Source of the DNA: Acidimicrobiia bacterium
Lineage (GTDB): Bacteria > Actinomycetota > Acidimicrobiia > Spongiisociales > SHLN01
NCBI GenBank assembly: GCA_013043085.1
Contig: JABDOU010000283.1
Span: 1-28,057 of the forward strand
DNA length: 28,057 bases
Direction: 5' to 3'
Shown here in pieces: positions 1-28,057 of the stretch. The notes beneath the pieces are model-generated. The model saw only the letters and a program-made list of their open reading frames with translations. It did not search any database and was not told the DNA's origin. Made by a program: the position numbers and the translations under genes. The first letter of the stretch is position 1, and every line of letters starts with the position of its first letter.

Positions 1-583
1 TCGCATATTCGTCGACCTGATCCATGAGCTGGATCGACCCGTCCACGTAGTCCTGCAGTTGGCTGGCGAGCAGGGCTGCGCCGACTCCAGCCAGTCGGGC
101 GGTCAAGGTTCCGGTCGTCTCCGAGCGAGCGATCTCCGTGCGCCATGTGGCAAAGACCGGGCCGGTATCTAGACCCGAGTCGAGCTGCATCAAGCTCACG
201 CCGGTGTGCTCATCACCGGCAAGAATTGCTCTGGCTACGGGAGCAGCACCCCGCCAACGTGGGAGCAAGGAAAAGTGCAGATTCACAAAACCCCGGCGCG
301 GTGCGATCAGCAGAGCATCCGGGATGATCTGCCCGTATGCGACCACCACCGCCACATCTACCTCGAGCATGGCGTCGATGAGCTCGCCCGGACGTTCTGG
401 CTGCACAACCTCCATACCCCATTGGTTTGCGGCAACCTTTACCGGGGGTGCAACGGGTTGCTTAGAGCGTCTTTGCGGTCGGTCCGGCCGCGTCACCACA
501 AGAGCAATCTCGGCAACCTCAGAAATGGCGGCCAGCGAGGGCACCGCAGCCGAAGGAGTCCCGAAGAAGGCGACCCGGGTCAT
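1..583 (-). CDS. fmt: Methionyl-tRNA formyltransferase, N-terminal part (runs off the window edge; not in the ORF track)
   Basis: Manual translation from ATG at 583: MTRVAFFGTPSAAVPSL...VVTRPDRP...VVVAYGQII...GFVNLHFSLLPRWRGAAPV...LDSGLDTGPV. Contains the NxHxSLLPxxRG and DTG formyltransferase motifs; lies directly downstream of def. Confidence 0.95.
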   Translation of the reverse strand, partial: MTRVAFFGTPSAAVPSLAAISEVAEIALVVTRPDRPQRRSKQPVAPPVKVAANQWGMEVVQPERPGELIDAMLEVDVAVVVAYGQIIPDALLIAPRRGFVNLHFSLLPRWRGAAPVARAILAGDEHTGVSLMQLDSGLDTGPVFATWRTEIARSETTGTLTARLAGVGAALLASQLQDYVDGSIQLMDQVDEYA

Positions 584-593
584 CGGTCCACTG

Positions 594-1100
594 CTACAGC
601 TGAGCCTTGCGCCACTCGCGCATGAACTCGATTCTCAAATCACGCTCGAGGCGTTTGATCAACAGGGTGCCGTGAAGATGATCGACCTCGTGTTGCAGCA
701 TCCGTCCCATCAGCTCGTCGCCCTCCAATTCGATAGCCTGCCCATCCACGTCGAAGCCGGCAACGCGAGCGTACTCGGGACGAGTGATCGGCCAGAAATG
801 GCCCGGAACCGACAGACAGCCCTCATCGAACTCGTAGGTCCCGCTCGTTTCGACGATCTCGGGATTGATCATCGCCCCGGGACCCTCTCCGATGTCGTAT
901 ACGAAAACGCGTTTCGAGATGCCGATCTGGGGCGCCGCTAATCCGACTCCTGGTGCGTCGTACATGCTCTCGAGCATGTCCTCGACCAGATGTTCGAGGT
1001 CAGCGTCGAACTCTGTGACGGGCTGAGCCGTCTGTCGGAGGACGGGATCGCCGAAGGTTCTAATGGGGTATATCGCCATGGCCGGGTGAGGATAGGTCAC
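594..1100 (-). CDS. def: Peptide deformylase
   Basis: Motifs GVGLAAPQIG, EGCLSVPG and QHEVDHLHG (HExxH). Start is either the GTG at 1100 (GTGA overlap with the priA stop) or the ATG at 1079. Confidence 0.97.
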   Translation of the reverse strand: MTYPHPAMAIYPIRTFGDPVLRQTAQPVTEFDADLEHLVEDMLESMYDAPGVGLAAPQIGISKRVFVYDIGEGPGAMINPEIVETSGTYEFDEGCLSVPGHFWPITRPEYARVAGFDVDGQAIELEGDELMGRMLQHEVDHLHGTLLIKRLERDLRIEFMREWRKAQL

Positions 1101-2878
1101 AGGTCACGCGGATCTGCATCGACGCGGACCGTGATTCCCTTCTGTCGCCAGGTGTGAATCACATCTCGTAAACCAATGCGAAAAGCACGCAAATCACGAC
1201 CCTGGGCCAGCCATCGGAATCCGTGGCCGGCCGGCGCCGGCCCGAACAACTCCACACCACGCTCAGCAGCGAGGTCGGGAAGCTCATCCGTGGGTTCCGA
1301 TGTTTCAACGACCAGCACCTCCCCTGCCGGCGGTAACACCAGTCGGGCGCGTTCTGCGAGTTGTTCCAACATGAACTCCGATGCATCCCCCCGCCTGAGA
1401 GCAACGATTACCGGATCGAGAGGGTGACTGGTTTGCACAATGAGGCGGTTTCCTCTCCCCCGTTCGACCAGTCTCGCCACTCGCACCATGACCTGCAGCG
1501 ACCGTTCGCGAGCCCGGTAGTGAGGTGCGGCAATCAATCCATCTGCATCGACAATCAGCGCCAGATCAACACCTGTGGCGGCAGCAAGGTCCGCTTCGCT
1601 TCCAACGGAAACTCTCTTCTCGTGACCCGGCTCCGACAGGTCGATATCAAGTACTCGCCCGACGTGTTCGGCTATGCGTTCAACTCCGGCACCAAGCGGC
1701 TCGAACCTGACGCCCTTGCATGTTGTACACGCGTCGGATTCATAGCCGCATCGCTCACACACTGGCCCCCGGCCGAGCCGTGCCTCACAGGAAGAACATG
1801 TGCGGACCGCGCGACACTGCACACATCGAAATGCCGGTGCATAACCCCGTCGATGAGCAAATACGAACAGTCTCTTGCCGCTGTTGAATGCATGTGTGAG
1901 CGCCCGGGTGCCGGACGGACTGAGAAGCCGTCCTTCCGGTGGTTCCTCGGAACGGTCAATCACCTCGACCAGTGGCCAGAGCCTTGTCGAAGTGGCTACG
2001 ACTCCCACCCCTGCGTCAAGCAGGTCCGTTGAGGCGGTGGAGCCCACGAATGCCAGCGCAAACTTTTCTACCGTCGCCCGTTTTCGCAATACCTCGCGAA
2101 CGTGCATGGTTGGCGTCTGCGGCTCCTTCATGGCCGGACGTTCTTCCTCAACTGCGATCGCAATACCCAGATCGGCAACCGGCCAAAGCACCCCCTCTCG
2201 GGTCCCGACGAGCACATTCCCGGCCTGGGCAGCCATCCTCACCCACGCTCGCGTTCGGACCTTCGATTCGAGTCGGCTATGGGTAATGACGATCCGGTTG
2301 CCGAACCATGCTTCAAGCGCCCGGCCCAGCCGATCAGCTTCGATCACCGTCGGCGCGATCACCATCGCTGATCTTCCAGAACGAACCACGGGACCCAGCA
2401 AACCGGCTATGGCAGCGGGTAATTCATCTCGCACGAGAATCGCCGTCGCGGGCGTCCGCTTGCGGTTTGCGGCAGCCGTCGTAAATGACGGATGAACCGA
2501 TGAAGGTGTTCGTGCGGGATCTTCGAGCTCCGGCAGGCGAATTTTCTTGGGAAGATTCGGAGGCGTGGTTTTGGCAAGAACTACCGACATCGGAGCAACG
2601 TAATGGGTTGCAATCCAACGCAGCACTTCAACCCCTGAAGACGAAAAGGCTGGATAATCGCTCGAAACGGCAGCTATTGGTTTCAAACCCGTCACATCTC
2701 CGCGACGAACAGAAATCACGTACCCACGTTTCCTCCGGTTTCCCACTGGAATCCTGACGACTGAGCCAACCGAGAGGTCGAGTCCGGCTGGTATCGAATA
2801 GCTGAACCCGTCATCGACAGCGAATGTGGGAATCGCTGGAACAACCTGTGCTATCAGCTCTGCATCAGCGTCGCTCAA
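1097..2878 (-). CDS. priA: Primosomal protein N' (PriA), with degenerate helicase motifs
   Basis: N-terminal FSYSIPAGLDLSVGSVVRIPVGNR (PriA 3'-DNA-binding-domain-like), RRGYAP followed by four CxxC pairs, and the late motif LIVQTSHP. Located in the coaBC-priA-def-fmt context. Start uncertain: TTG at 2878 chosen, ORF open to 2905. Confidence 0.88.
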   Translation of the reverse strand: MSDADAELIAQVVPAIPTFAVDDGFSYSIPAGLDLSVGSVVRIPVGNRRKRGYVISVRRGDVTGLKPIAAVSSDYPAFSSSGVEVLRWIATHYVAPMSVVLAKTTPPNLPKKIRLPELEDPARTPSSVHPSFTTAAANRKRTPATAILVRDELPAAIAGLLGPVVRSGRSAMVIAPTVIEADRLGRALEAWFGNRIVITHSRLESKVRTRAWVRMAAQAGNVLVGTREGVLWPVADLGIAIAVEEERPAMKEPQTPTMHVREVLRKRATVEKFALAFVGSTASTDLLDAGVGVVATSTRLWPLVEVIDRSEEPPEGRLLSPSGTRALTHAFNSGKRLFVFAHRRGYAPAFRCVQCRAVRTCSSCEARLGRGPVCERCGYESDACTTCKGVRFEPLGAGVERIAEHVGRVLDIDLSEPGHEKRVSVGSEADLAAATGVDLALIVDADGLIAAPHYRARERSLQVMVRVARLVERGRGNRLIVQTSHPLDPVIVALRRGDASEFMLEQLAERARLVLPPAGEVLVVETSEPTDELPDLAAERGVELFGPAPAGHGFRWLAQGRDLRAFRIGLRDVIHTWRQKGITVRVDADPRDL

Positions 2879-19094: not shown

Positions 19095-19607
19095 CTACTT
19101 CAGGATCTGTTGTCCCTCGCCCAATACAAAGGTCGAGTCACCAAATAGGAACGTGACCTTGTCGTCGTCCAGGGCGACAATCTTGTAGCGACCGGCGAAT
19201 GTTTCACCGACACCAACGGTGTACTCAGTGCCATCGACCCGGACGATCGCCCTGCGATTCCCGGCAGCATCCGTGGTGATCGCAACGACTGTCACATTGC
19301 TTCCGGAGAGAGGATCATCGGAACCGGAAACATCGGGCGCTCCGACAATGAGGGGTCGGAAAGGATCGCGTGGTTGAGCGGCCTGGAACGCCTCGACGAC
19401 TCGGGATCCGCGCAGCAAACTGTCCGTGGAACCAACACCCGCGACCACGCCGGCGTCGGTGGCTGACGGAAGCACGACGTTCTGCGGAGCATCGAGCGTC
19501 GTGCGTGACGCTCCAAAGACGCCAGGCGCCACCAGCAGCCAGCTGATTGAAACCAGCGCAGCAAGCAGCAGAATCGTCGTAATGAGCGTAGAGCTTCGCT
19601 TGACCAT
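19095..19607 (-). CDS. PilP/GspC-HR-like pilus alignment protein with an N-terminal transmembrane helix
   Basis: Directly after pilO (TGATG overlap). Hydrophobic N-terminal helix, PRDPFRP motif, and a C-terminal beta-rich region (RAIVRVDGTEYTVGVGETFAGRYKIVALDDDKVTF). No Cys, so no lipobox. Confidence 0.55.
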   Translation of the reverse strand: MVKRSSTLITTILLLAALVSISWLLVAPGVFGASRTTLDAPQNVVLPSATDAGVVAGVGSTDSLLRGSRVVEAFQAAQPRDPFRPLIVGAPDVSGSDDPLSGSNVTVVAITTDAAGNRRAIVRVDGTEYTVGVGETFAGRYKIVALDDDKVTFLFGDSTFVLGEGQQILK

Positions 19608-20188
19608 CAGTTCCCCTCCTCCTCCACTTCCAGAGTTCCTGGCAGTGGACTGGTTGAAAAGGCTCGCGCCGTCAAGTTGGTTTGGAGAATGTTTGTCGAC
19701 GTTTCTTCGTCCAGAGTCGCCGAGATGGACAATTGGTCGACACGGATCAGCCGGTCGAGATCCTCCAGGTCGAAGAGGAATTGCAGAGTCCTGAAGTACT
19801 CGCCCTCGATGCCGAGGTTCAGCGCGATTTCGTACAGACCTTCGCCCAAAGTCGATTCAGCAGGGGGAATCGCGGTGAGCTGGATTATCGCAAGACCAGA
19901 ATCTCTGGCCAGGGATCGAATCGACTCCAGCAACGCTGCTTCACTTGGATCTTCCGGGATCGACACCGAGATCTCAGCGACCGCCGCATCAAACTGGCCT
20001 TGTTGGCGCTGAAGTTCCAATAATCTGGCGATGCGTGCCTCGAGCGTCTCTTGCTCCTGTGACGCCGTCTGGATGTCGGCCTCGATGTCATCGATCGTGG
20101 CCGTCGAACCCCTCCAGAACAGGAACCACCAAAGCGCCAGGATGACCAATCCAACGAGCACAGCGATCAAGATGTTGCGTCGGCTCAT
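19607..20188 (-). CDS. pilO: Type IV pilus assembly protein PilO
   Basis: N-terminal TM helix, coiled coil, conserved IP, and IEGEYFRTLQFLFDLEDLDRLIRV; follows pilN. Confidence 0.88.
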   Translation of the reverse strand: MSRRNILIAVLVGLVILALWWFLFWRGSTATIDDIEADIQTASQEQETLEARIARLLELQRQQGQFDAAVAEISVSIPEDPSEAALLESIRSLARDSGLAIIQLTAIPPAESTLGEGLYEIALNLGIEGEYFRTLQFLFDLEDLDRLIRVDQLSISATLDEETSTNILQTNLTARAFSTSPLPGTLEVEEEGN

Positions 20189-20772
20189 GAGATCTCCGGA
20201 ATTCTGGATGCAATTCTTGCGCTCGCTGCTTCATCGGTCAGTTGAGCGCTGGACTGGTAGCCAACAACGGCGACTCCGTTGACGTCGGTTGCCGTGACGG
20301 AAGTCACCCAGGTCGATCCGAGCCCTGCGTAGGACGTATTGTCAATGGAGCGGAGCCAGTTGGCGACATCTTCATATTCGAAGGCTGTTCCCGATACCGT
20401 TACCTGCACGTCGTTTCCGGTCAGGTTGCTCAACCAAACACGATCAGGGATGAATCGGCCGAGATCGTTGAGCAGTCTCGCCCACGACACATCTCCGGCG
20501 AGAGCGGCCACGACGAGTTCGCTTCGAGCGTCGAAATTCTGAAGCGGGATCTCGAACTGACCTAGAGAATCTATTTCGGCCTGTTTCGCGGCATTTGCCT
20601 GTTGTTGAGCCACCAGATCATCTTCGAGATCTCGAACGGTTGTGAGGCGCCCGAGTGTGAGAAACGCAAGTAGGACAACCAGCAGCACCAGGCCGGCTAG
20701 CAATATGACACGGTTGCGTCGCGAGGCCTCCTCTTCGAAGATCTCGCCGGGAAGGAGATTGATGTCCCTCAT
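20185..20772 (-). CDS. pilN: Type IV pilus assembly protein PilN
   Basis: MRDINLLP hallmark, TM helix, coiled coil, IPDRVWLSNL and VSGTA. ATG at 20772 forms an ATGA overlap with the pilM stop. Confidence 0.92.
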   Translation of the reverse strand: MRDINLLPGEIFEEEASRRNRVILLAGLVLLVVLLAFLTLGRLTTVRDLEDDLVAQQQANAAKQAEIDSLGQFEIPLQNFDARSELVVAALAGDVSWARLLNDLGRFIPDRVWLSNLTGNDVQVTVSGTAFEYEDVANWLRSIDNTSYAGLGSTWVTSVTATDVNGVAVVGYQSSAQLTDEAASARIASRIPEIS

Positions 20773-21830
20773 TCGGGACTCCATAGCGCCAGCCCAACGG
20801 GAACCGGAAGTACCGGCTGCAGAGGGGCCACTACCTCATCGGACAGTTTGCCAGTGCTGAGGTGACTGAGAACACGGGCGGGTTCGACAGGTGCGTCGAG
20901 CGCACGCCCGAGTCGATTTGCAAGATGAGGAAGCCGAGCGCCATTGCCCGCCACGATCACCTTGCTCACCGGGCCGCCTTCGCCCTGGCTCAGGAAGAAG
21001 TTGACCGATCCTCGAATCTCCTCGATGAACCTGCCGGCCTCGGCGGTCAAAAGTGACTGGGCGACCTCGTCTTCGGTCTCGTCGCCGGATGCTGCGGAGA
21101 CATCGTCGTCGACCGAGATTCCGATGCGACGCTTGAGCTGCTCGGCGGCCGCGAATTCGAGATTCAATCCTTCAATCAGTGTGTCGGTGAATGCCGAGCC
21201 GCCAGTCTGAATGATGCGAACGAAGCGTGGAGTCAATCCACTGACGAGCACCACCTGCGTGATCTCGGCCCCGATATCGACCAACACCGCGATGCCGCTG
21301 ACCGGCTGCGGTATCAACGACCTGACGAGGGCGAATGCTTGAAGGTCGACAGCGATAACGTTGAGACCTGCTGAGGTGGTGACGTCGAGGAAATCCTGGA
21401 CCATCGATCGATGGGCGGCAACGGCGAGGATGGCTTGCATTGGTTCGCCCTCTGGTGTGGTGAACTCGTCGATTCCAACGTGGTCGAGGATTGCCTCCTC
21501 CACTGACATTGGCATGTATTCCTGCACCTGAAACGGAAGGGCGTCTCTCAGCTCCGCTTCACCCATGAGAGGGACATCAACCTGACGCACAACGACTCGC
21601 TGGTTGGCGACGCCAACAACCACCCTCTTCTTGGGCAATCGATGCTTGCGCCAAAGCTCCTTGATGGCATCGACGATCGCTGCTCCGTCAATGATCTCTC
21701 CCGCGGCAACGGCGCCTTCTGGTAGCTGCACCTCGCCGACCTTGCGAAGGACGGGCTGGGACTTTCCGGCGTCGATGGCCACAGCGCGAACGCTGCTGGA
21801 ACCTATATCCAGGCCAACGTTGACTGCCAT
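20769..21830 (-). CDS. pilM: Type IV pilus assembly protein PilM (actin-like fold)
   Basis: VGLDIGSSSVRAV, VVVRQVDVP, LVDIGAEITQVV, GGSAFT, VAGNGARL and VPVGLAL. Confidence 0.95.
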   Translation of the reverse strand: MAVNVGLDIGSSSVRAVAIDAGKSQPVLRKVGEVQLPEGAVAAGEIIDGAAIVDAIKELWRKHRLPKKRVVVGVANQRVVVRQVDVPLMGEAELRDALPFQVQEYMPMSVEEAILDHVGIDEFTTPEGEPMQAILAVAAHRSMVQDFLDVTTSAGLNVIAVDLQAFALVRSLIPQPVSGIAVLVDIGAEITQVVLVSGLTPRFVRIIQTGGSAFTDTLIEGLNLEFAAAEQLKRRIGISVDDDVSAASGDETEDEVAQSLLTAEAGRFIEEIRGSVNFFLSQGEGGPVSKVIVAGNGARLPHLANRLGRALDAPVEPARVLSHLSTGKLSDEVVAPLQPVLPVPVGLALWSPE

Positions 21831-21978
21831 CTACTCTCCGCCTCTTCGTCTCGTGATGTATCCGGATGCCCAGCGCGGGTGTCTCGGTTACGACTTCGGT
21901 TTGTCTCGCTCGTGTGCTTGATCGTGTATTGCTTGTTCGTGCTCGGTCTGACGCTCGATGTGGATCGTGCGTCCACGA

Positions 21979-21999
21979 ACGTGTTGTAATTACGCACGT
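21979..21999. promoter_or_regulatory. Imperfect palindrome upstream of pilM; candidate transcription-factor site
   Basis: ACGTG-TT-GTAATTAC-G-CACGT: a perfect 8-bp AT-rich palindromic core with 5-bp inverted flanks. Confidence 0.4.
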
Positions 22000-22040
22000 G
22001 TCATTTACTCGGCGAAAGCATAGCGATGAGGGGTATAGCC

Positions 22041-22063
22041 CGCGGTCTTTGGACCGGACCGCG
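22041..22063. other. Stem-loop downstream of pilD
   Basis: CGCGGTC/GACCGCG 7-bp stem with a 9-nt loop. No U-tract on the coding strand, so terminator function is unproven. Confidence 0.35.
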
Positions 22064-22132
22064 AAAACTTCTCTAACGGCGCGGTTACGCGTTCTTGAGG
22101 ATCCCGTTGGCGGTGGTCGCTGGGCGGGGTCT

Positions 22133-22906
22133 TCAGAGTCCGAGATACCACGACGCGATCGAGTCGCCCCATAGGGCAGCCAGCCACGCTGCCCCCATCA
22201 TCGCCGGCCCAAACGGCATCTTGGCTTTTCGGCCCCGCTTCGTGAACAGCATGATCGCAGTACCTGCCAGGCCACCGAGCAGGAAGGCAAGAAAGATCCC
22301 GACTACGAGCTCTGGCCAACCGGAGTACGCCATCACAAATCCGAGCAAGAACGCAAGTTTGACATCGCCGAAACCGAAGCCTCCAGGGGTGACCATGAAG
22401 AGGACAAAGAACAGAACGAGATAGACAAGGCCACCTAGGAAGGCGACCGGGAGTTGATCGGTCTGGCTTTCCAGAACGCTGCCACCAATGAATAAGGCAA
22501 CAGTCAGCCCGGTTCCCGTGAAAACGATCCGGTCGGGTAATCGTTTGTGATCGAGATCGGTGAGAATCAATGCGATCGTCGTACCCGCGAAAAACAGGTA
22601 GCCCGGTAGCAATGCCGTAGGTCCCACCCACCACGCGATGAGACCAAATAGTAAACCGGATGCACCTTCCACAACCGCATACCGCCGAGACACCGAGCTC
22701 CCGCAATCGCGACATTTGCCGCGAAGACGTAGCCAACTGATGACCGGGATATTGTCGGAGGCGCGGATAGGGGCGTCACAAGCCGGACAAGCGGAACCAG
22801 GACTGATGACCGACTTGCCGAGCGGCACTCGATACGCCACCACGTTCAAGAATGAGCCAATGATCAACCCGACGAGCGCGGAAAAGGCAATCAGCAACGC
22901 ATGCAT
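22133..22906 (-). CDS. pilD: Prepilin peptidase / N-methyltransferase
   Basis: GSFLNVVAYRVP, two CxxC pairs (CPAC, CRDC), DLDHKRLPD and GFGDVKLA catalytic Asp motifs, and MPFGPAM. Confidence 0.96.
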   Translation of the reverse strand: MHALLIAFSALVGLIIGSFLNVVAYRVPLGKSVISPGSACPACDAPIRASDNIPVISWLRLRGKCRDCGSSVSRRYAVVEGASGLLFGLIAWWVGPTALLPGYLFFAGTTIALILTDLDHKRLPDRIVFTGTGLTVALFIGGSVLESQTDQLPVAFLGGLVYLVLFFVLFMVTPGGFGFGDVKLAFLLGFVMAYSGWPELVVGIFLAFLLGGLAGTAIMLFTKRGRKAKMPFGPAMMGAAWLAALWGDSIASWYLGL

Positions 22907-22915
22907 GATCTATTG

Positions 22916-23377
22916 CTACCAGCCGTTACCGGCCCATGCCGGTGAAGCCGGCGGCGACAAGGGACAGGAACCCCCGAACAGCGCTGCGGCGGTATCGGAT
23001 CGACCGAACGCAGTTGCATCCTGCACGGCATCCCAGATTCCGAACCAGGTTCCGGATTGACTCTGCACCGCCATGCAGACAACATCGGTGCCGTTAACGG
23101 CGACACCAATCTGTCCCACAGGTGGGCTGAGAGATGCCACAAACAAGAAGCTCGGCTCTACAGCCTGCAGCTCGGTCACATCGTCGGTAAACGAGAACCT
23201 CCCGGCCATGACACTTTTCTCTGCAACCAGACCGTTGCGAAGCGCGGACTGCGCTGCACGGTCTTGAGCCGTCACCCTCTGGCCCAGAAACGTCGGGACA
23301 GCTACCGCAATGAGAATGGCGACAATCAGAACAACGATCATCAATTCGACGAGCGAGAATCCGTCTTGTCGTGACAT
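22916..23377 (-). CDS. Type IVa pilin, second paralog
   Basis: Class III signal MSRQDG|FSLVELMIVV (G-1, F+1, E+5) and two Cys in the C-terminal half. No Shine-Dalgarno. Confidence 0.92.
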   Translation of the reverse strand: MSRQDGFSLVELMIVVLIVAILIAVAVPTFLGQRVTAQDRAAQSALRNGLVAEKSVMAGRFSFTDDVTELQAVEPSFLFVASLSPPVGQIGVAVNGTDVVCMAVQSQSGTWFGIWDAVQDATAFGRSDTAAALFGGSCPLSPPASPAWAGNGW

Positions 23378-23385
23378 GACAGCAA

Positions 23386-23413
23386 ATATCGACCATCCAT
23401 GAAGCGCCCTTGA
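23386..23413 (-). promoter_or_regulatory. Sigma28 (FliA/WhiG)-like promoter of the second pilin
   Basis: TCAAG-N15-GTCGATAT, with the ATG 8 nt after the -10 box (leaderless or nearly so). Confidence 0.6.
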
Positions 23414-23464
23414 ACGATTCCGATTGGTACCGGCCGGATACTCGCCTCAGCTCCTTTGCACGCG

Positions 23465-23494
23465 AAAATGGGACCCCTGAAGGGGTCCCATTTT
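23465..23494 (-). terminator. Intrinsic terminator after the major pilin
   Basis: Perfect 13-bp inverted repeat AAAATGGGACCCC/GGGGTCCCATTTT with a 4-nt loop, 19 nt after the stop codon. Confidence 0.9.
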
Positions 23495-23513
23495 CTTACT
23501 GACTTGGAGTTGA

Positions 23514-23984
23514 CTACCAGCTGGCGGCGGTAGCGTCCGTTGCACAGTCGGTGAGCGTGCCTCCGGAGGCAATTTCACCATAGGCAGTCGCAGCAGTCGG
23601 ATCCTCAGCAATCATGAAGATCTTTCCACTGGCGCTCAGCACGGTGAGACAGGCAACGCCGCCGGTCTCGAGCTTGACGAATACGTCTCCCGCATTCGAT
23701 GTAGCAGCCGCGTATGCGTCCTCTTGCCAAGTGAGGCTTGGCTCGACGGCGCCGAGATCGGCAGCAACGTCGGTGTATGCCTGGTCATTGGCGTAAATGG
23801 TCTTTTCCGTGGCCAGGGCGTTGCGCAGATTTGACTGTGCAGCACGGTCCTGGGCCGTCTCACGTTGACCGAGGAAGGTCGGGATCGCGATTGCGACCAA
23901 GATGGCGATGATAAGCACCACGACCATAAGCTCGATCAGTGTGAAACCGTCTTCGTTGAGACGATTGCGCATCCGATTCAACAT
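23514..23984 (-). CDS. pilA: Type IVa pilin, probable major pilin (156 aa precursor)
   Basis: ATG at 23984 with RBS AGGAGG. Class III signal MLNRMRNRLNEDG|FTLIELMVVV and two Cys. Has its own promoter and terminator. Confidence 0.93.
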   Translation of the reverse strand: MLNRMRNRLNEDGFTLIELMVVVLIIAILVAIAIPTFLGQRETAQDRAAQSNLRNALATEKTIYANDQAYTDVAADLGAVEPSLTWQEDAYAAATSNAGDVFVKLETGGVACLTVLSASGKIFMIAEDPTAATAYGEIASGGTLTDCATDATAASW

Positions 23985-24013
23985 GTTGTATTGCCTCCTA
24001 TGACAATGAATCC

Positions 24014-24032
24014 GGGACGCAATGCGCGTCCC
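24014..24032 (-). other. Stem-loop in the predicted 5' UTR of the major pilin
   Basis: GGGACGC/GCGTCCC 7-bp stem with a 5-nt loop, between the promoter and the RBS. Confidence 0.6.
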
Positions 24033-24045
24033 ATGTACAACAGCT

Positions 24046-24073
24046 ATATCGGCCCCCCTCCCAGCTTCCTTAA
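24046..24073 (-). promoter_or_regulatory. Sigma28 (FliA/WhiG)-like promoter of the major pilin
   Basis: TTAAG-N15-GCCGATAT against the consensus TAAA-N15-GCCGATAA: 3/4 and 7/8 matches with exact spacing. Confidence 0.75.
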
Positions 24074-24076
24074 GGG

Positions 24077-24103
24077 TGATCGGCCAATTTCCCAAACGAA
24101 CTA
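24077..24103 (-). promoter_or_regulatory. Possible second, tandem sigma28-like promoter
   Basis: TAGT-N15-GCCGATCA immediately upstream of the first promoter; weaker -35. Confidence 0.35.
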
Positions 24104-24460: not shown

Positions 24461-25687
24461 CTAGCCGATGACGTTGACCAGGTTGAACATCGGCAGGTAC
24501 AGGGCTACGAGAATGGCACCGACCGTTGCACCCATGAAGGCGATGAGAATTGGCTCGAGGAGGCTGGTGAGAGCGTCGACGGTGTCGTTGACTTCCCGGT
24601 CGTAGAAGTCGGAGACCTTGTCGAGCATGTTGTCGAGCGCACCGGTTTCTTCGCCAACGGCCATCATCTGGACGACCATGGGCGGGAAGATCTTGCCTTC
24701 TTTTGCCAGCGGCTTCGAGATCGAATCTCCACCCTTGACGGCCTGTGAGACCCGGTTTACGGCGTCTCCGACCACTACGTTTCCAGCGGTCAACTCGACG
24801 ATCGCCATCGCTTCGAGAATCGGGACGCCGGAACGTACAAGCACGCCAAGCGTTCTGGCGAATCGGCTGATGGCGGTCTTGTGGTTCATGGTGCCGAACA
24901 CCGGTGCTCGCAACTTGAACGCATCCCACAAACGACGGCCGCCCTTCGTATTGATCCAACGCCGGAACGCGTAGACGGCACCGCCAAATGCGGGGAAGAT
25001 GATGTACCACCTCGAAGTGAGGATGCCCGAGGCGCCGATCAACGCTCGGGTCGCGATCGGAAGTTCGCCGCCTACGTCTGCGTACATATCGACGAACTGC
25101 GGTACGACGAAAAGGAGCATGAGAGTGACGACGCCTGCCACCATGCTGAGGACCACGATCGGGTATGCCATGGCCGACTTGATTTTGCTGCGCAATGCCG
25201 CCGCAGATTCGAGGGTGTCTGCGATGCGTTCGAGAGTCTCGTCGAGGACACCTGCGGCTTCGCCGGCCTGGACCATGGCCACGAAGAGTGTGTTGAAGAC
25301 CTTGGGATGCTGCTCGAGAGCAACGCTGAGGCTTGCACCGCGCTCGACACTGGCCCGCACCTCCCCGATTGTCTTCTTGAGAGGCTTGGATACGGTCTGT
25401 TCTTCGAGAACATAGAGAGACCTCAGTAGCGACAGACCGGAATTGATCATGGTCGCAAACTGACGGCTGAAGATGGCAATCTCTTTGGCCTTGATCCGAT
25501 CGGTGATGCCCGGGATCGAGATCTCTTTCTGAAGACCATCGGTCTTCTTCTCGGCCACGCCGAGAGGGGTCATCCCGCTTTCTTTCAGAGCGCGAATAAC
25601 CGCTTCTTTGGAGGAACCCTCCAACTCACCTTCGATGACTTTGCCGCTCTTGGCGTCACGAACCTTGTATGTGTACATCGAGGCCAT
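24461..25687 (-). CDS. pilC: Type IV pilus inner-membrane platform protein PilC (GspF family)
   Basis: FSRQFATMINSGLSLLRSL, GEAAGVLD, KSAMAYP, FARTLGVLVRSGVPIL, VGEETGALD and LLEP. Confidence 0.97.
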   Translation of the reverse strand: MASMYTYKVRDAKSGKVIEGELEGSSKEAVIRALKESGMTPLGVAEKKTDGLQKEISIPGITDRIKAKEIAIFSRQFATMINSGLSLLRSLYVLEEQTVSKPLKKTIGEVRASVERGASLSVALEQHPKVFNTLFVAMVQAGEAAGVLDETLERIADTLESAAALRSKIKSAMAYPIVVLSMVAGVVTLMLLFVVPQFVDMYADVGGELPIATRALIGASGILTSRWYIIFPAFGGAVYAFRRWINTKGGRRLWDAFKLRAPVFGTMNHKTAISRFARTLGVLVRSGVPILEAMAIVELTAGNVVVGDAVNRVSQAVKGGDSISKPLAKEGKIFPPMVVQMMAVGEETGALDNMLDKVSDFYDREVNDTVDALTSLLEPILIAFMGATVGAILVALYLPMFNLVNVIG

Positions 25688-25690
25688 GCT

Positions 25691-27229
25691 CTAACCGCCC
25701 TGTAGGAGGCGTTGCATCGCCTCTTTGTCGTTGCAACGTTCGAGCGCAAGTTCTCGAGTGATCTTGCCCTGTTTGGTCATCGCGGCCAGCGCCATGTCCA
25801 TCGTCTGCATTCCGTACTTGCCACCTGCCTGAATGGCGCTCGGGATCTGGTGGACCTTGCCATCGCGTACGAGGTTCCGGATCGCCGACGTTGCAATCAT
25901 GACCTCGACTGCCGCGATCCGACCCTTGCCGTCAACGGTAGGGAGCAACTGTTGGGACAAAACGGCCTGCAGCGAACCGGCCAACATCACACGAACCTGA
26001 GATTGCTGATGCGCTGGAAACACATCGATGATTCGCTCTATGGATTGAGGTGCACTTTGGGTATGGAGAGTTCCAAAGACAAGGTGTCCTGTTTCGGCTG
26101 CGGTCAAGGCAGCGCCGATGGTTTCGAGATCTCGCATCTCACCCACCAGGATCACGTCCGGATCCTGCCGCAAGATGTGCTTGAGCGCCTGGTTGAAGCC
26201 GAGCGTGTCAGTTCCGACCTCACGTTGATTCACGATGCTCTTCTTGTGCCGGTGCAAGAACTCGATCGGATCCTCAACAGTGATGATGTGACTCGCCCGC
26301 TCCGTGTTGATCAGGTTGATGATCGACGCCAACGACGTGGACTTACCTGACCCGGTCGGGCCGGTCACGAGAACCAGACCACGATGCAAGTGCGCAAGTG
26401 AGTTGACCGCAGCAGGCATGCCGAGCTCATCGGGATTCTTGATCTCATTGGGAATGGAACGCAGAACCGCCGCTACCGAATCACGCTGGAAGAACACGTT
26501 GACACGAAATCGTCCACGGCCAGGGAGTGGATGGGAAGTGTCCAGCTCTCGAGTTTCCTCGAAGCGAGTTCTCTGCTCGGCCGTGAGGATGTCGTACAGG
26601 ATCCGGCGAAGCTCAGCCGGCATCAGAATGTCGAATCCCTCCATCGGCTCCAGGGACCCGTGAACGCGCACCATGGGCGGCGAACCGGCGGTCAGGTGAA
26701 GGTCGGAACCCTGCTTTTCGATCAACAACTCGAGGAAATCGTTGAGATGTACCTGCTCGGCGATTTCTGTGCGTATACGTCTCGGCTCCTCGTCGAGCCC
26801 CATGAAGAATGAATTGAGCATCTCGTCGATACCCGTCTGGCTGGCAAGCGCCATGGTTACAGCCGAGCCACATACGGTCTCGAGGCTGGTTTGGATGTCT
26901 CGTACAAACGGGTTGGCAACCGCCACAATGACGCGGCCATCTTCTACTTTGATAGGAATCGCATTGAAGCGATGTGCCGTGTCGGGATCGAGCCTGGACA
27001 CTGCCTCGGGCTGAAGCACCTCATTCTGCACGTCGACATACCTCATCCCGATCCGATCTGCGACCGTAGCGAGCAGATCCCCAGGTGACACGTGGCCGTT
27101 TTGCAGAAGGATTCGTGCAAGAGGAACGTCCGTGTCCTTTTCCTGCACGTACAGGGCTTCGAGCACGTCACGGCTCAGCAGTCTCTTATCGACGAGTGAT
27201 TCGCCGATTTGTTTGGAAACCCTGTTCAC
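25691..27229 (-). CDS. pilT: Type IV pilus retraction ATPase PilT with an extra PilB-like N-terminal region (512 aa)
   Basis: Core motifs GSDLHL, Walker [17 protein letters not shown], Walker [14 protein letters not shown] and the PilT signature AIRNLVRD. No tetracysteine Zn motif. About 150 extra N-terminal residues. GTGA overlap with pilB. Confidence 0.93.
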
Positions 27230-28057
27230 GCCACGACTCTCATGATCTCTTCGATGGACGTCATGCCCTTGCGAACCTTTGTCATACCGTCATCCCACAG
27301 TTCGAGCATGCCTTGCTCTTTGGCGACGACTTTGATTTCGTTCGAAGGGCGGTTCTCGACGGCCATGCGGCGAATCTCGTCGGATATGAGCATGACCTCG
27401 TGCAATGCCAATCGCCCGCGGTAACCGTTCGAACAAGCACCACATCCCTTCGGATCAGCGGCATACATCTGCGAGGCGGTGGCTTTCTCGATCTCCTCAT
27501 CGGCCCATCTGGCTTTGACGAGCACATCCTTGTCAGGCGAATACTCGACCTTGCACTTCTTGCACAGGCGTCTCGCGAGACGTTGGCCGAGCACAGCGTC
27601 GAGAGAGGATGAAACCAGATAAGGTTCAACACCCATTTCAATGAGGCGGCCGATGCTCGATGGGGCATCGTTGGTGTGCAGGGTTGAAAGCACGAGGTGA
27701 CCGGTCAGGGCAGCTTCGATTGCGATCTGCGCCGTCTCGTGGTCACGAATCTCACCAACAAGGGCAATGTCAGGGTCAGAACGCAGGATTGAACGCAAAG
27801 CGGTGGCAAAGGTCAATCCGGCCTTCTTGTTGACCTGGACCTGAGTTATCCCCTCCAGGCGATACTCAACCGGATCTTCTGTGGTGATGATGTTGACTTC
27901 GGGTTTGTTCAACACGTTGAGCGTGGCGTACAGGGTGGTGGACTTACCGGAACCGGTCGGGCCCGTGACGAGAATCGCGCCATAAGGCTTCGTGTAGGCC
28001 GACTCGAATCGAGCAAGCGTTTGCGGCAGGAAACCGAGATCCACCAGCTCCAACAAC
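27226..28057 (-). CDS. pilB: Type IV pilus assembly ATPase PilB, C-terminal part (start outside the window)
   Basis: [42 protein letters not shown], Zn motif RRLCKKC...GCGAC and GYRGR. Confidence 0.95.

Follow-up and report, generated by a model that had tools for sequence, protein, structure and literature searches.

An N-terminal MshEN domain on a PilT-type pilus retraction ATPase of Acidimicrobiia

What does a pilus retraction motor do with the N-terminal domain of an extension motor? The question is raised by a stretch of 28,057 nucleotides from an Acidimicrobiia bacterium (assembly GCA_013043085.1, contig JABDOU010000283.1, positions 1 to 28,057 of the forward strand; the whole stretch is called the window below), in which the gene for the retraction ATPase PilT, next to that for the extension ATPase PilB, encodes a protein of 512 amino acids (aa) opening with an MshEN domain. 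It is unsettled how PilB and PilT hexamers, which act against each other, alternate at the base of a type IV pilus machine, and the role of the N1/MshEN domain of PilB is poorly understood (review PMC11656802). PilT-type ATPases have been said to lack a T2SSE_N domain (Roelofs et al., PMC4624772), and the founding MshEN paper never mentions PilT. The preliminary description of the window, made from the sequence alone, had placed a PilB-type region of about 142 residues (26804-27229) ahead of the PilT core and proposed a retraction motor carrying the N1D/MshEN module of an extension motor. Profiles, matches to solved chains and structure models agree on this architecture, with a domain that ends near residue 145 and scores above the Pfam threshold for MshEN, and the initial observation holds on all material points.

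A PilT core behind an MshEN domain

The protein falls into three parts, an MshEN/GSPII domain (residues 1-145, called the N-domain below), a linker (146-160) and a PilT core (161-512), which lie in the window as follows:

25691 to 27229, minus strand: the long pilT gene, 512 aa and a stop codon, whose GTG start overlaps the pilB stop as GTGA
27050 to 27229, minus strand: MshEN_N subdomain, residues 1-60, a predicted four-helix bundle (AlphaFold2 predicted local distance difference test, pLDDT, 89-97)
26795 to 27049, minus strand: MshEN_C alpha/beta subdomain, residues 61-145 (PF05157 at residues 61-144, own-genome profile match at 26798-27049, and the structure model)
26750 to 26794, minus strand: flexible linker, residues 146-160, about 15 residues (pLDDT <50 for residues 146-156)
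25694 to 26749, minus strand: PilT ATPase core, residues 161-512 (TIGR01420, PDB matches and motifs)
26339 to 26362, minus strand: Walker A, GPTGSGKS, residues 290-297 (sequence motif)
within the core, minus strand: Walker B/Asp box, residues 356-367, and His box, residues 380-390 (sequence motifs)
25862 to 25885, minus strand: AIRNLVRD, residues 449-456 (sequence motif)

Profile and fold agree on the N-terminal part. Pfam MshEN (PF05157) matches residues 61-144 with 48.9-51.8 bits, against a gathering threshold of 23.1, and the T2SSE_N-like segment that had been noticed earlier is the AIP...VAVANP signature of residues 89-108, inside this match and within MshEN_C. In the full-length AlphaFold2 model, built on 66 orthologues (mean pLDDT 89.8), the N-domain is confident (blocks of 89-97) and the linker disordered over residues 146-156; modelled alone, the N-domain reaches 92.5. 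Four predicted helices (residues 3-14, 20-33, 37-43 and 49-59) are followed by an alpha/beta unit, so that the domain has both the four-helix MshEN_N plus alpha/beta MshEN_C fold and the profile score of an MshEN member. A Foldseek search of the PDB with the N-domain model returned MshEN/GSPII domains in all of its top 20 places (template modelling (TM) scores 0.5-0.67, E 4e-10 to 7e-6), the leading matches being PilF GSPII-A/B, MshE, Xanthomonas PilB-N and XpsE-N. Compared with solved chains by sequence, the N-terminus is closest to the three Thermus PilF GSPII domains, followed by Geobacter PilB, MshE (5htl) and XpsE.

The core is that of PilT by every comparison made. The model TIGR01420 (PilT/PilU family type 4a pilus ATPase) matches residues 162-502 with 480.6 bits (cut-off 319.1), while the PilB model TIGR02538 reaches 181.9 bits against a cut-off of 675.65. 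There are no CxxC pairs; the only two cysteines are Cys120 and Cys499, so the protein has no tetracysteine zinc motif. An AIRNLIRE-type motif near the C-terminus is generally taken as specific to PilT, and its presence here as AIRNLVRD, with the missing zinc motif, bears out the earlier assignment of the ATPase, which had been drawn from these two marks. Walker A, the Asp box/Walker B and the His box are intact and invariant in the 66 orthologues. Against solved chains the core matches PilT with E values of 1e-119 to 1e-100 (5zfq 1.7e-119, 6ojx, 2ewv and 3jvu), PilU with 5e-88 and PilB with 1e-27, and its AlphaFold2 model superposes on Geobacter PilT4 (6ojx) with a TM score of 0.95 (0.92-0.95 to 6OJX and 3JVV).

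Set beside canonical PilT (G. metallireducens PilT4 6OJX, G. sulfurreducens PilT-4 5ZFQ, P. aeruginosa PilT 3JVU/3JVV and Aquifex PilT 2EWV), residues 161-512 are 51-55% identical and share the Walker A/B motifs, the His box, the AIRNLIRE-type motif, the lack of a zinc motif and the place of the gene in a pil operon. The difference lies ahead of the core. Canonical PilT has about 345-390 aa and begins with the N2 domain, the usual form being of about 350 aa with no N1 domain, whereas the protein here adds a 145-residue MshEN domain and a linker to reach 512 aa. Its start codon is supported by the orthologues, whose alignments begin at residue 1-2 and agree with a start at residue 1, the GTG.

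The genome holds one other PilT-family gene that we found, a short one on contig C194 (locus L127 of the same genome, G000; positions 2-1021, minus strand), whose product shares 45% identity with the core and reaches 434 bits with TIGR01420. The AIRNLxRx motif was not found in this paralogue, which looks PilU-like from its sequence and leaves the long protein as the true PilT at this locus. Almost every one of the 31 genomes of the order has such a short PilT-family paralogue, with 44-51% identity to the core. Judged by profile, motif and predicted structure, the long protein is a genuine type IVa pilus retraction ATPase of the pil operon, retraction itself being the activity expected of its family.

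Distribution, age and selection of the fusion

The preliminary description had implied a local peculiarity, and the survey of relatives speaks otherwise. Full-length matches (query residues 1-7 to 508-512) adjoin pilB in 26 of the 31 genomes of the order; the 31 include the organism's own genome, and an unpublished one (G028) is among the 26, leaving 25 of 30 without it. Several of these fusions are on long contigs, and the genomes were assembled independently. A search of 5.8 billion proteins gave over 100 clusters sharing the PF05157 plus PF00437 architecture (54-67% identity, 494-551 aa), whose named members, few in number, all read 'Acidimicrobiia bacterium'. The fusion is the norm in this order and is lineage-wide.

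Further away, a 201-genome sample of the phylum gave full-length matches in families f15, f26 and f60 and in part of f24; the phylum tallies take in four unpublished genomes (G031, G076, G116 and G147), none of whose sequences was used. A hidden Markov model of the N-domain found the domain, on a longer linker, on the PilT of families f23 and f17, and family f30 has an ordinary short PilT. PilT orthologues from two actinobacterial families besides that of the window (L039 in G123 and L040 in G200) carry MshEN on a far longer linker, of about 70-120 residues, and had escaped whole-protein matching. Among 80 loci listed from genomes of named species, Egicoccus (L047) has the only fusion, in a scan that used two peptide patterns located in the core, returned mostly short PilTs from many phyla and says nothing on absence elsewhere.

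A representative library at 50% identity, drawn from 1.84 billion proteins, places the fusion among other long PilT-like proteins: 17 of the best 150 matches carry the domain, one of them in two copies. P0222 (887 aa) has two tandem MshEN domains before the PilT core, and seven others (P0124, P0125, P0127-P0129, P0131 and P0133; about 720-1020 aa) have two tandem PilT cores. Half of the 150 nearest PilT-like representatives have at least 90 aa before the core, mostly with no Pfam match, and a Pfam scan of ten other long N-terminal extensions matched HEAT repeats in one and was empty for the other nine. Mis-called starts in high-GC DNA may account for many of these other extensions.

The preliminary description had named, as an outcome that would undo its proposal, an architecture already both widespread and characterised. 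Widespread it is; as to characterised, no description of a PilT with an MshEN domain was found in the literature searched, which took in few subscription journals. In databases, proteins with this architecture already number in the hundreds and go by the generic name 'PilT/PilU family type 4a pilus ATPase'.

As to its origin, the N-domain of PilT and that of PilB from the same genome (the latter encoded on contig C343) share 27% identity over 103 residues. We built a maximum-likelihood tree of 28 PilT-borne and 26 PilB-borne N-domains from the same loci in several actinobacterial classes. One branch (99/98 support) parts all 28 from all 26, the split recurs in 98% of bootstrap trees, and the branching within each set broadly matches the genome groups. 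The N-domain belongs to a PilT-specific clade of MshEN domains, whose members have longer terminal branches and evolved faster at depth. A recent copy of the neighbouring pilB, the origin that had been suggested earlier, is ruled out by the low identity together with this branch, and since PilT-borne and PilB-borne domains are split, any duplication is older than these lineages. A single origin stays unproven, the tree being unrooted and the domain short.

Selection on the domain was followed in comparison with a congener (G003), from which the N-domain differs by 52 synonymous changes and 1 non-synonymous change, giving a ratio of non-synonymous to synonymous rates (dN/dS) of 0.004. The core gives 0.003 and the linker about 0.1; linker values overall are about 0.1-0.25, where the flanking domains have 0.004. 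At this short range the domain is held as tightly as the motor itself. The pair with G002 (L006), misaligned by an offset of one codon, was left out of this analysis, and in the comparison with G001 the N-domain has a saturated dS. A real and ancient fusion, kept under strong purifying selection, is thereby shown.

One sub-lineage has altered the domain on both motors at once. In four genomes of family f24 (L036 in G081, L037 in G038, L045 in G124 and L046 in G138), PilT and PilB both lack the four-helix MshEN_N and start essentially at MshEN_C, while other members of f24 have the full domain on both. This suggests that neither motor can do without MshEN_C and that the four-helix halves of the two take a common input which is dispensable. 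The loss in this subset was probably one evolutionary event, which makes the evidence weak.

An altered c-di-GMP site

The N-domain resembles the MshEN/GSPII (N1D) domains of V. cholerae MshE (5HTL), Thermus PilF (GSPII-B/C) and the PilB proteins of Myxococcus, Clostridium and Geobacter in its two-subdomain fold, its 24-5-24 register, its N-terminal position and the flexible linker before an ATPase of the PilT/VirB11 class. It differs from them in being joined to a retraction-type core, in belonging to a clade apart from the PilB domains of the same genomes, and in the key residues for cyclic di-guanosine monophosphate (c-di-GMP), which are replaced, with the motif model under its cut-off.

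Domains of this type that bind c-di-GMP have two 24-residue motifs, RLGxxhhxxGhhxxxxhxxxLxxQ, separated by a 5-residue spacer (Wang et al. 2016, PMC5013675). Contacts to guanine come from the backbone amide of Gly3, stacking on the bases from the Leu residues, and binding of ribose and phosphate from Gln24; Gly10 forms the helix turn (PMC5013675). The corresponding motifs in the window are:

27140 to 27211, minus strand: motif I, residues 7-30, with Gln at position 1 (Gln7), Arg at position 10 (Arg16) and Glu at position 24 (Glu30)
27053 to 27124, minus strand: motif II, residues 36-59, with Pro at position 1 (Pro36), Ala at position 3 (Ala38), His at position 11 (His46) and Arg at position 24

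The two repeats recognised in the preliminary description stand, with the canonical spacer; its motif I had been drawn one residue short, and position 24 is Glu30, not Gln29. The substitutions that it listed, of both leading Arg residues (Gln7 and Pro36) and of two Gly (Arg16 and Ala38), are all found, and the substitution of canonical c-di-GMP residues is borne out by the motif comparison and by 114 orthologues. Gly9 and Gly45 are kept. Even in its relaxed form, the published motif does not admit Gln7, Arg16, Glu30, Ala38 or His46 (PMC5013675), and the NCBIfam model c-di-GMP_motif (NF053729) matches residues 7-57 with 25.3-27.3 bits, under its cut-off of 38.

Several of these positions matter in characterized proteins. 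In MshE, R9A abolishes binding (Roelofs et al. 2015, PMC4624772), and so do G11L and G40I (PMC5013675). In Thermus PilF, affinity falls 158-fold when the Gln at position 24 of motif I is changed to Glu, and neither the double Gln-to-Glu mutant nor the naturally degenerate GSPII-A, with its degenerate motif II, binds at all (PMC11731258).

The changes recur across the clade. Of the 114 orthologues, 96 have Arg at position 10 of motif I and 78 have Glu at its position 24; in motif II, 102 have Pro at position 1 and 82 have Ala at position 3. Hardly any variation is seen at Gly9, Asp21, Asp51 and the hydrophobic positions. Arg (or His/Lys) at position 10 of motif I marks the PilT-borne domains of most lineages examined, and Gly is kept there in nearly all PilB-borne ones. 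The PilB of most relatives keeps both Gly residues in both motifs, and that of this genus has Thr for Gly3 and Glu for Gly10 in motif II. At the other end, motif II of the PilT-borne domains of f26 fits the relaxed published motif fully. As read from these alignments, the altered residues are conserved across the clade and are not decay. This copy has probably lost canonical high-affinity binding of c-di-GMP or retains it in much weakened form, because three experimentally important positions are changed and the changes are clade-conserved; weak or altered, non-canonical nucleotide binding is possible.

The nearest precedents for a domain of this kind without c-di-GMP are Thermus PilF GSPII-A, which is also the top structural match of the N-domain, and the N-domain of Xanthomonas XpsE (2D27/2D28). 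Both have the fold and degenerate motifs in common with the domain described here, and neither binds c-di-GMP (PMC11731258, PMC5013675). They sit on extension or secretion ATPases, and the substitutions here form a different pattern, conserved in the PilT clade.

Possible roles in docking, sensing and the choice of motor

The platform genes that enter the discussion of function lie in the same operon:

27226 to 28056, minus strand: 3' part of pilB, extension ATPase with a CxxC...CxxC zinc motif (Pfam T2SSE, 311 bits), cut by the window end
24461 to 25687, minus strand: pilC, platform gene directly downstream of pilT (Pfam T2SSF, 212 bits)
23514 to 24095 and 22916 to 23377, minus strand: two pilins (Pfam)
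22133 to 22906, minus strand: prepilin peptidase (Pfam)
20769 to 21830, minus strand: pilM (Pfam)
20185 to 20784, minus strand: pilN (Pfam)
19607 to 20188, minus strand: pilO (Pfam)

Beyond pilC, the rest of the type IVa pilus genes span 19607 to 24095 on the minus strand. After pilO come an open reading frame of 170 aa (19095-19607, minus strand), for which Pfam gave no match at E<=0.01, and then aroC. No secretin was found in the genome, a bin of 416 contigs that is 77% complete. The N-terminal 418 aa of PilB are encoded on contig C343 (locus L001 of G000; positions 1-1254, minus strand), which overlaps the pilB fragment of the window (27226-28056) with two amino-acid differences, E/A and T/A; the break between the two looks, from these sequences, like an assembly break from strain variation.

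By a little better than an even chance, in our estimate, the N-domain is a docking or regulatory handle that does not bind c-di-GMP in the canonical way. On its flexible linker, the MshEN domain would anchor the PilT hexamer on the cytoplasmic side of the platform (PilM/PilN/PilC), partners of the class thought to be used by PilB- and GspE-type N1 domains. PilT and PilB would then alternate or compete at one site, at the base of a secretin-less, monoderm machine, and the four-helix half may add regulation. A precedent is the N1E domain of GspE bound to the cytoplasmic domain of GspL (2BH1, 4PHT), where an N1 domain docks to a PilM-like, actin-fold platform protein; its structural match to the N-domain is marginal (E 0.17, ranks 22-23, MshEN_C only). 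Docking of N1 to the platform has also been hypothesised for PilB (review PMC11656802). The binding of PilM, or of some ligand in place of canonical c-di-GMP, suggested in the preliminary description, is plausible. The sub-lineage that keeps MshEN_C and drops MshEN_N on both motors counts in favour of such a handle.

A number of points weigh against it, and most of them speak for a domain that still senses a nucleotide. Docking to PilM/PilC is argued by analogy with the roles of N1 domains in GspE and PilB systems, and the conserved altered residues would fit a new specific ligand or partner as well as a purely structural role. The register of the motifs is exact (24-5-24, 53 residues, with the spacer at 31-35), and the guanine-stacking hydrophobics are largely kept (Ile8, Leu23, Tyr27, Leu37, Leu52 and Val56). 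PilF tolerates Lys or Leu at motif position 1, and its GSPII-C, whose motif II begins with Pro, has an affinity of about 460 nM (PMC11731258). GGDEF gave 2 matches in this genome and is present in 30 of the 31 relatives, while neither EAL nor PilZ was found in the genome at its 77% completeness, a combination that leaves room for an altered site for c-di-GMP or for another dinucleotide. The domain could accordingly be a cyclic-dinucleotide sensor, taking c-di-GMP at lower affinity or some other dinucleotide, through which a second messenger would gate retraction and mirror the control of PilB and MshE. The conservation of the altered residues and the motif II of f26 fit such a sensor too, but we consider it somewhat unlikely. 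The Gln at position 1 of motif I and the Glu at its position 24 correspond to changes that abolish binding in MshE and reduce it 158-fold in PilF; the Ala at position 3 of motif II takes the place of the Gly needed for backbone-amide contacts, the residue hit by G40I; the turn Gly of motif I is an Arg; the NCBIfam model stays under its cut-off; and one sub-lineage does without the entire four-helix subdomain.

It is quite improbable, in our view, that the long protein is a second extension-type or bifunctional motor, with a PilT-like core that came to use the docking site of PilB and serves assembly as well as retraction. Its gene stands between pilB and pilC and carries the N1 domain of PilB, a separate short paralogue of the PilT/PilU family is encoded elsewhere in the genome, and in V. 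cholerae the MSHA pilus depends on PilT for the promotion of extension as well as retraction, as the title of PMC9815625 states. Yet profile, motif and structure unambiguously mark the core as PilT, a normal PilB with its zinc motif is encoded directly upstream, and the short paralogue, PilU-like and without AIRNLxRx, does not resemble a primary retraction motor. An artefactual fusion, whether from a chimeric assembly or a mis-called start or as a functionless, decaying remnant, has a probability close to nil. The fragmentation of the bin, the end of the window within pilB and the overlapping contig with variant residues would suit an artefact, but the fold is confidently predicted, the start codon is coupled to the pilB stop, and a chimera is ruled out by the recurrence of the architecture in more than 100 protein clusters and in 26 of 31 independently assembled genomes, along with the dN/dS of 0.004.

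A further reading may be considered, though we hold it to be unlikely: the paralogous MshEN/N1 domains of the two motors would compete for one docking site on the PilM/PilC platform, and their four-helix subdomains would read a second messenger or partner that tilts the choice of the engaged motor. Such a motor-exchange switch, if true, would be built in, would be found in Acidimicrobiia and several other actinobacterial lineages, and would replace the separate PilZ/FimX-type adaptors of proteobacteria; the joint loss of MshEN_N in one sub-lineage would then be the loss of a shared input.

Whatever its exact role, the finding corrects the statement that PilT-type ATPases lack a T2SSE_N domain (PMC4624772). 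It also provides a natural experiment, a lineage of retraction motors with their own diverged MshEN copy beside a PilB that has an ordinary one. If the domain is a docking handle, a comparison of the two paralogous domains should show which surface docks and what decides between the motors; if a nucleotide is still bound, a retraction motor would be gated directly by a second messenger.

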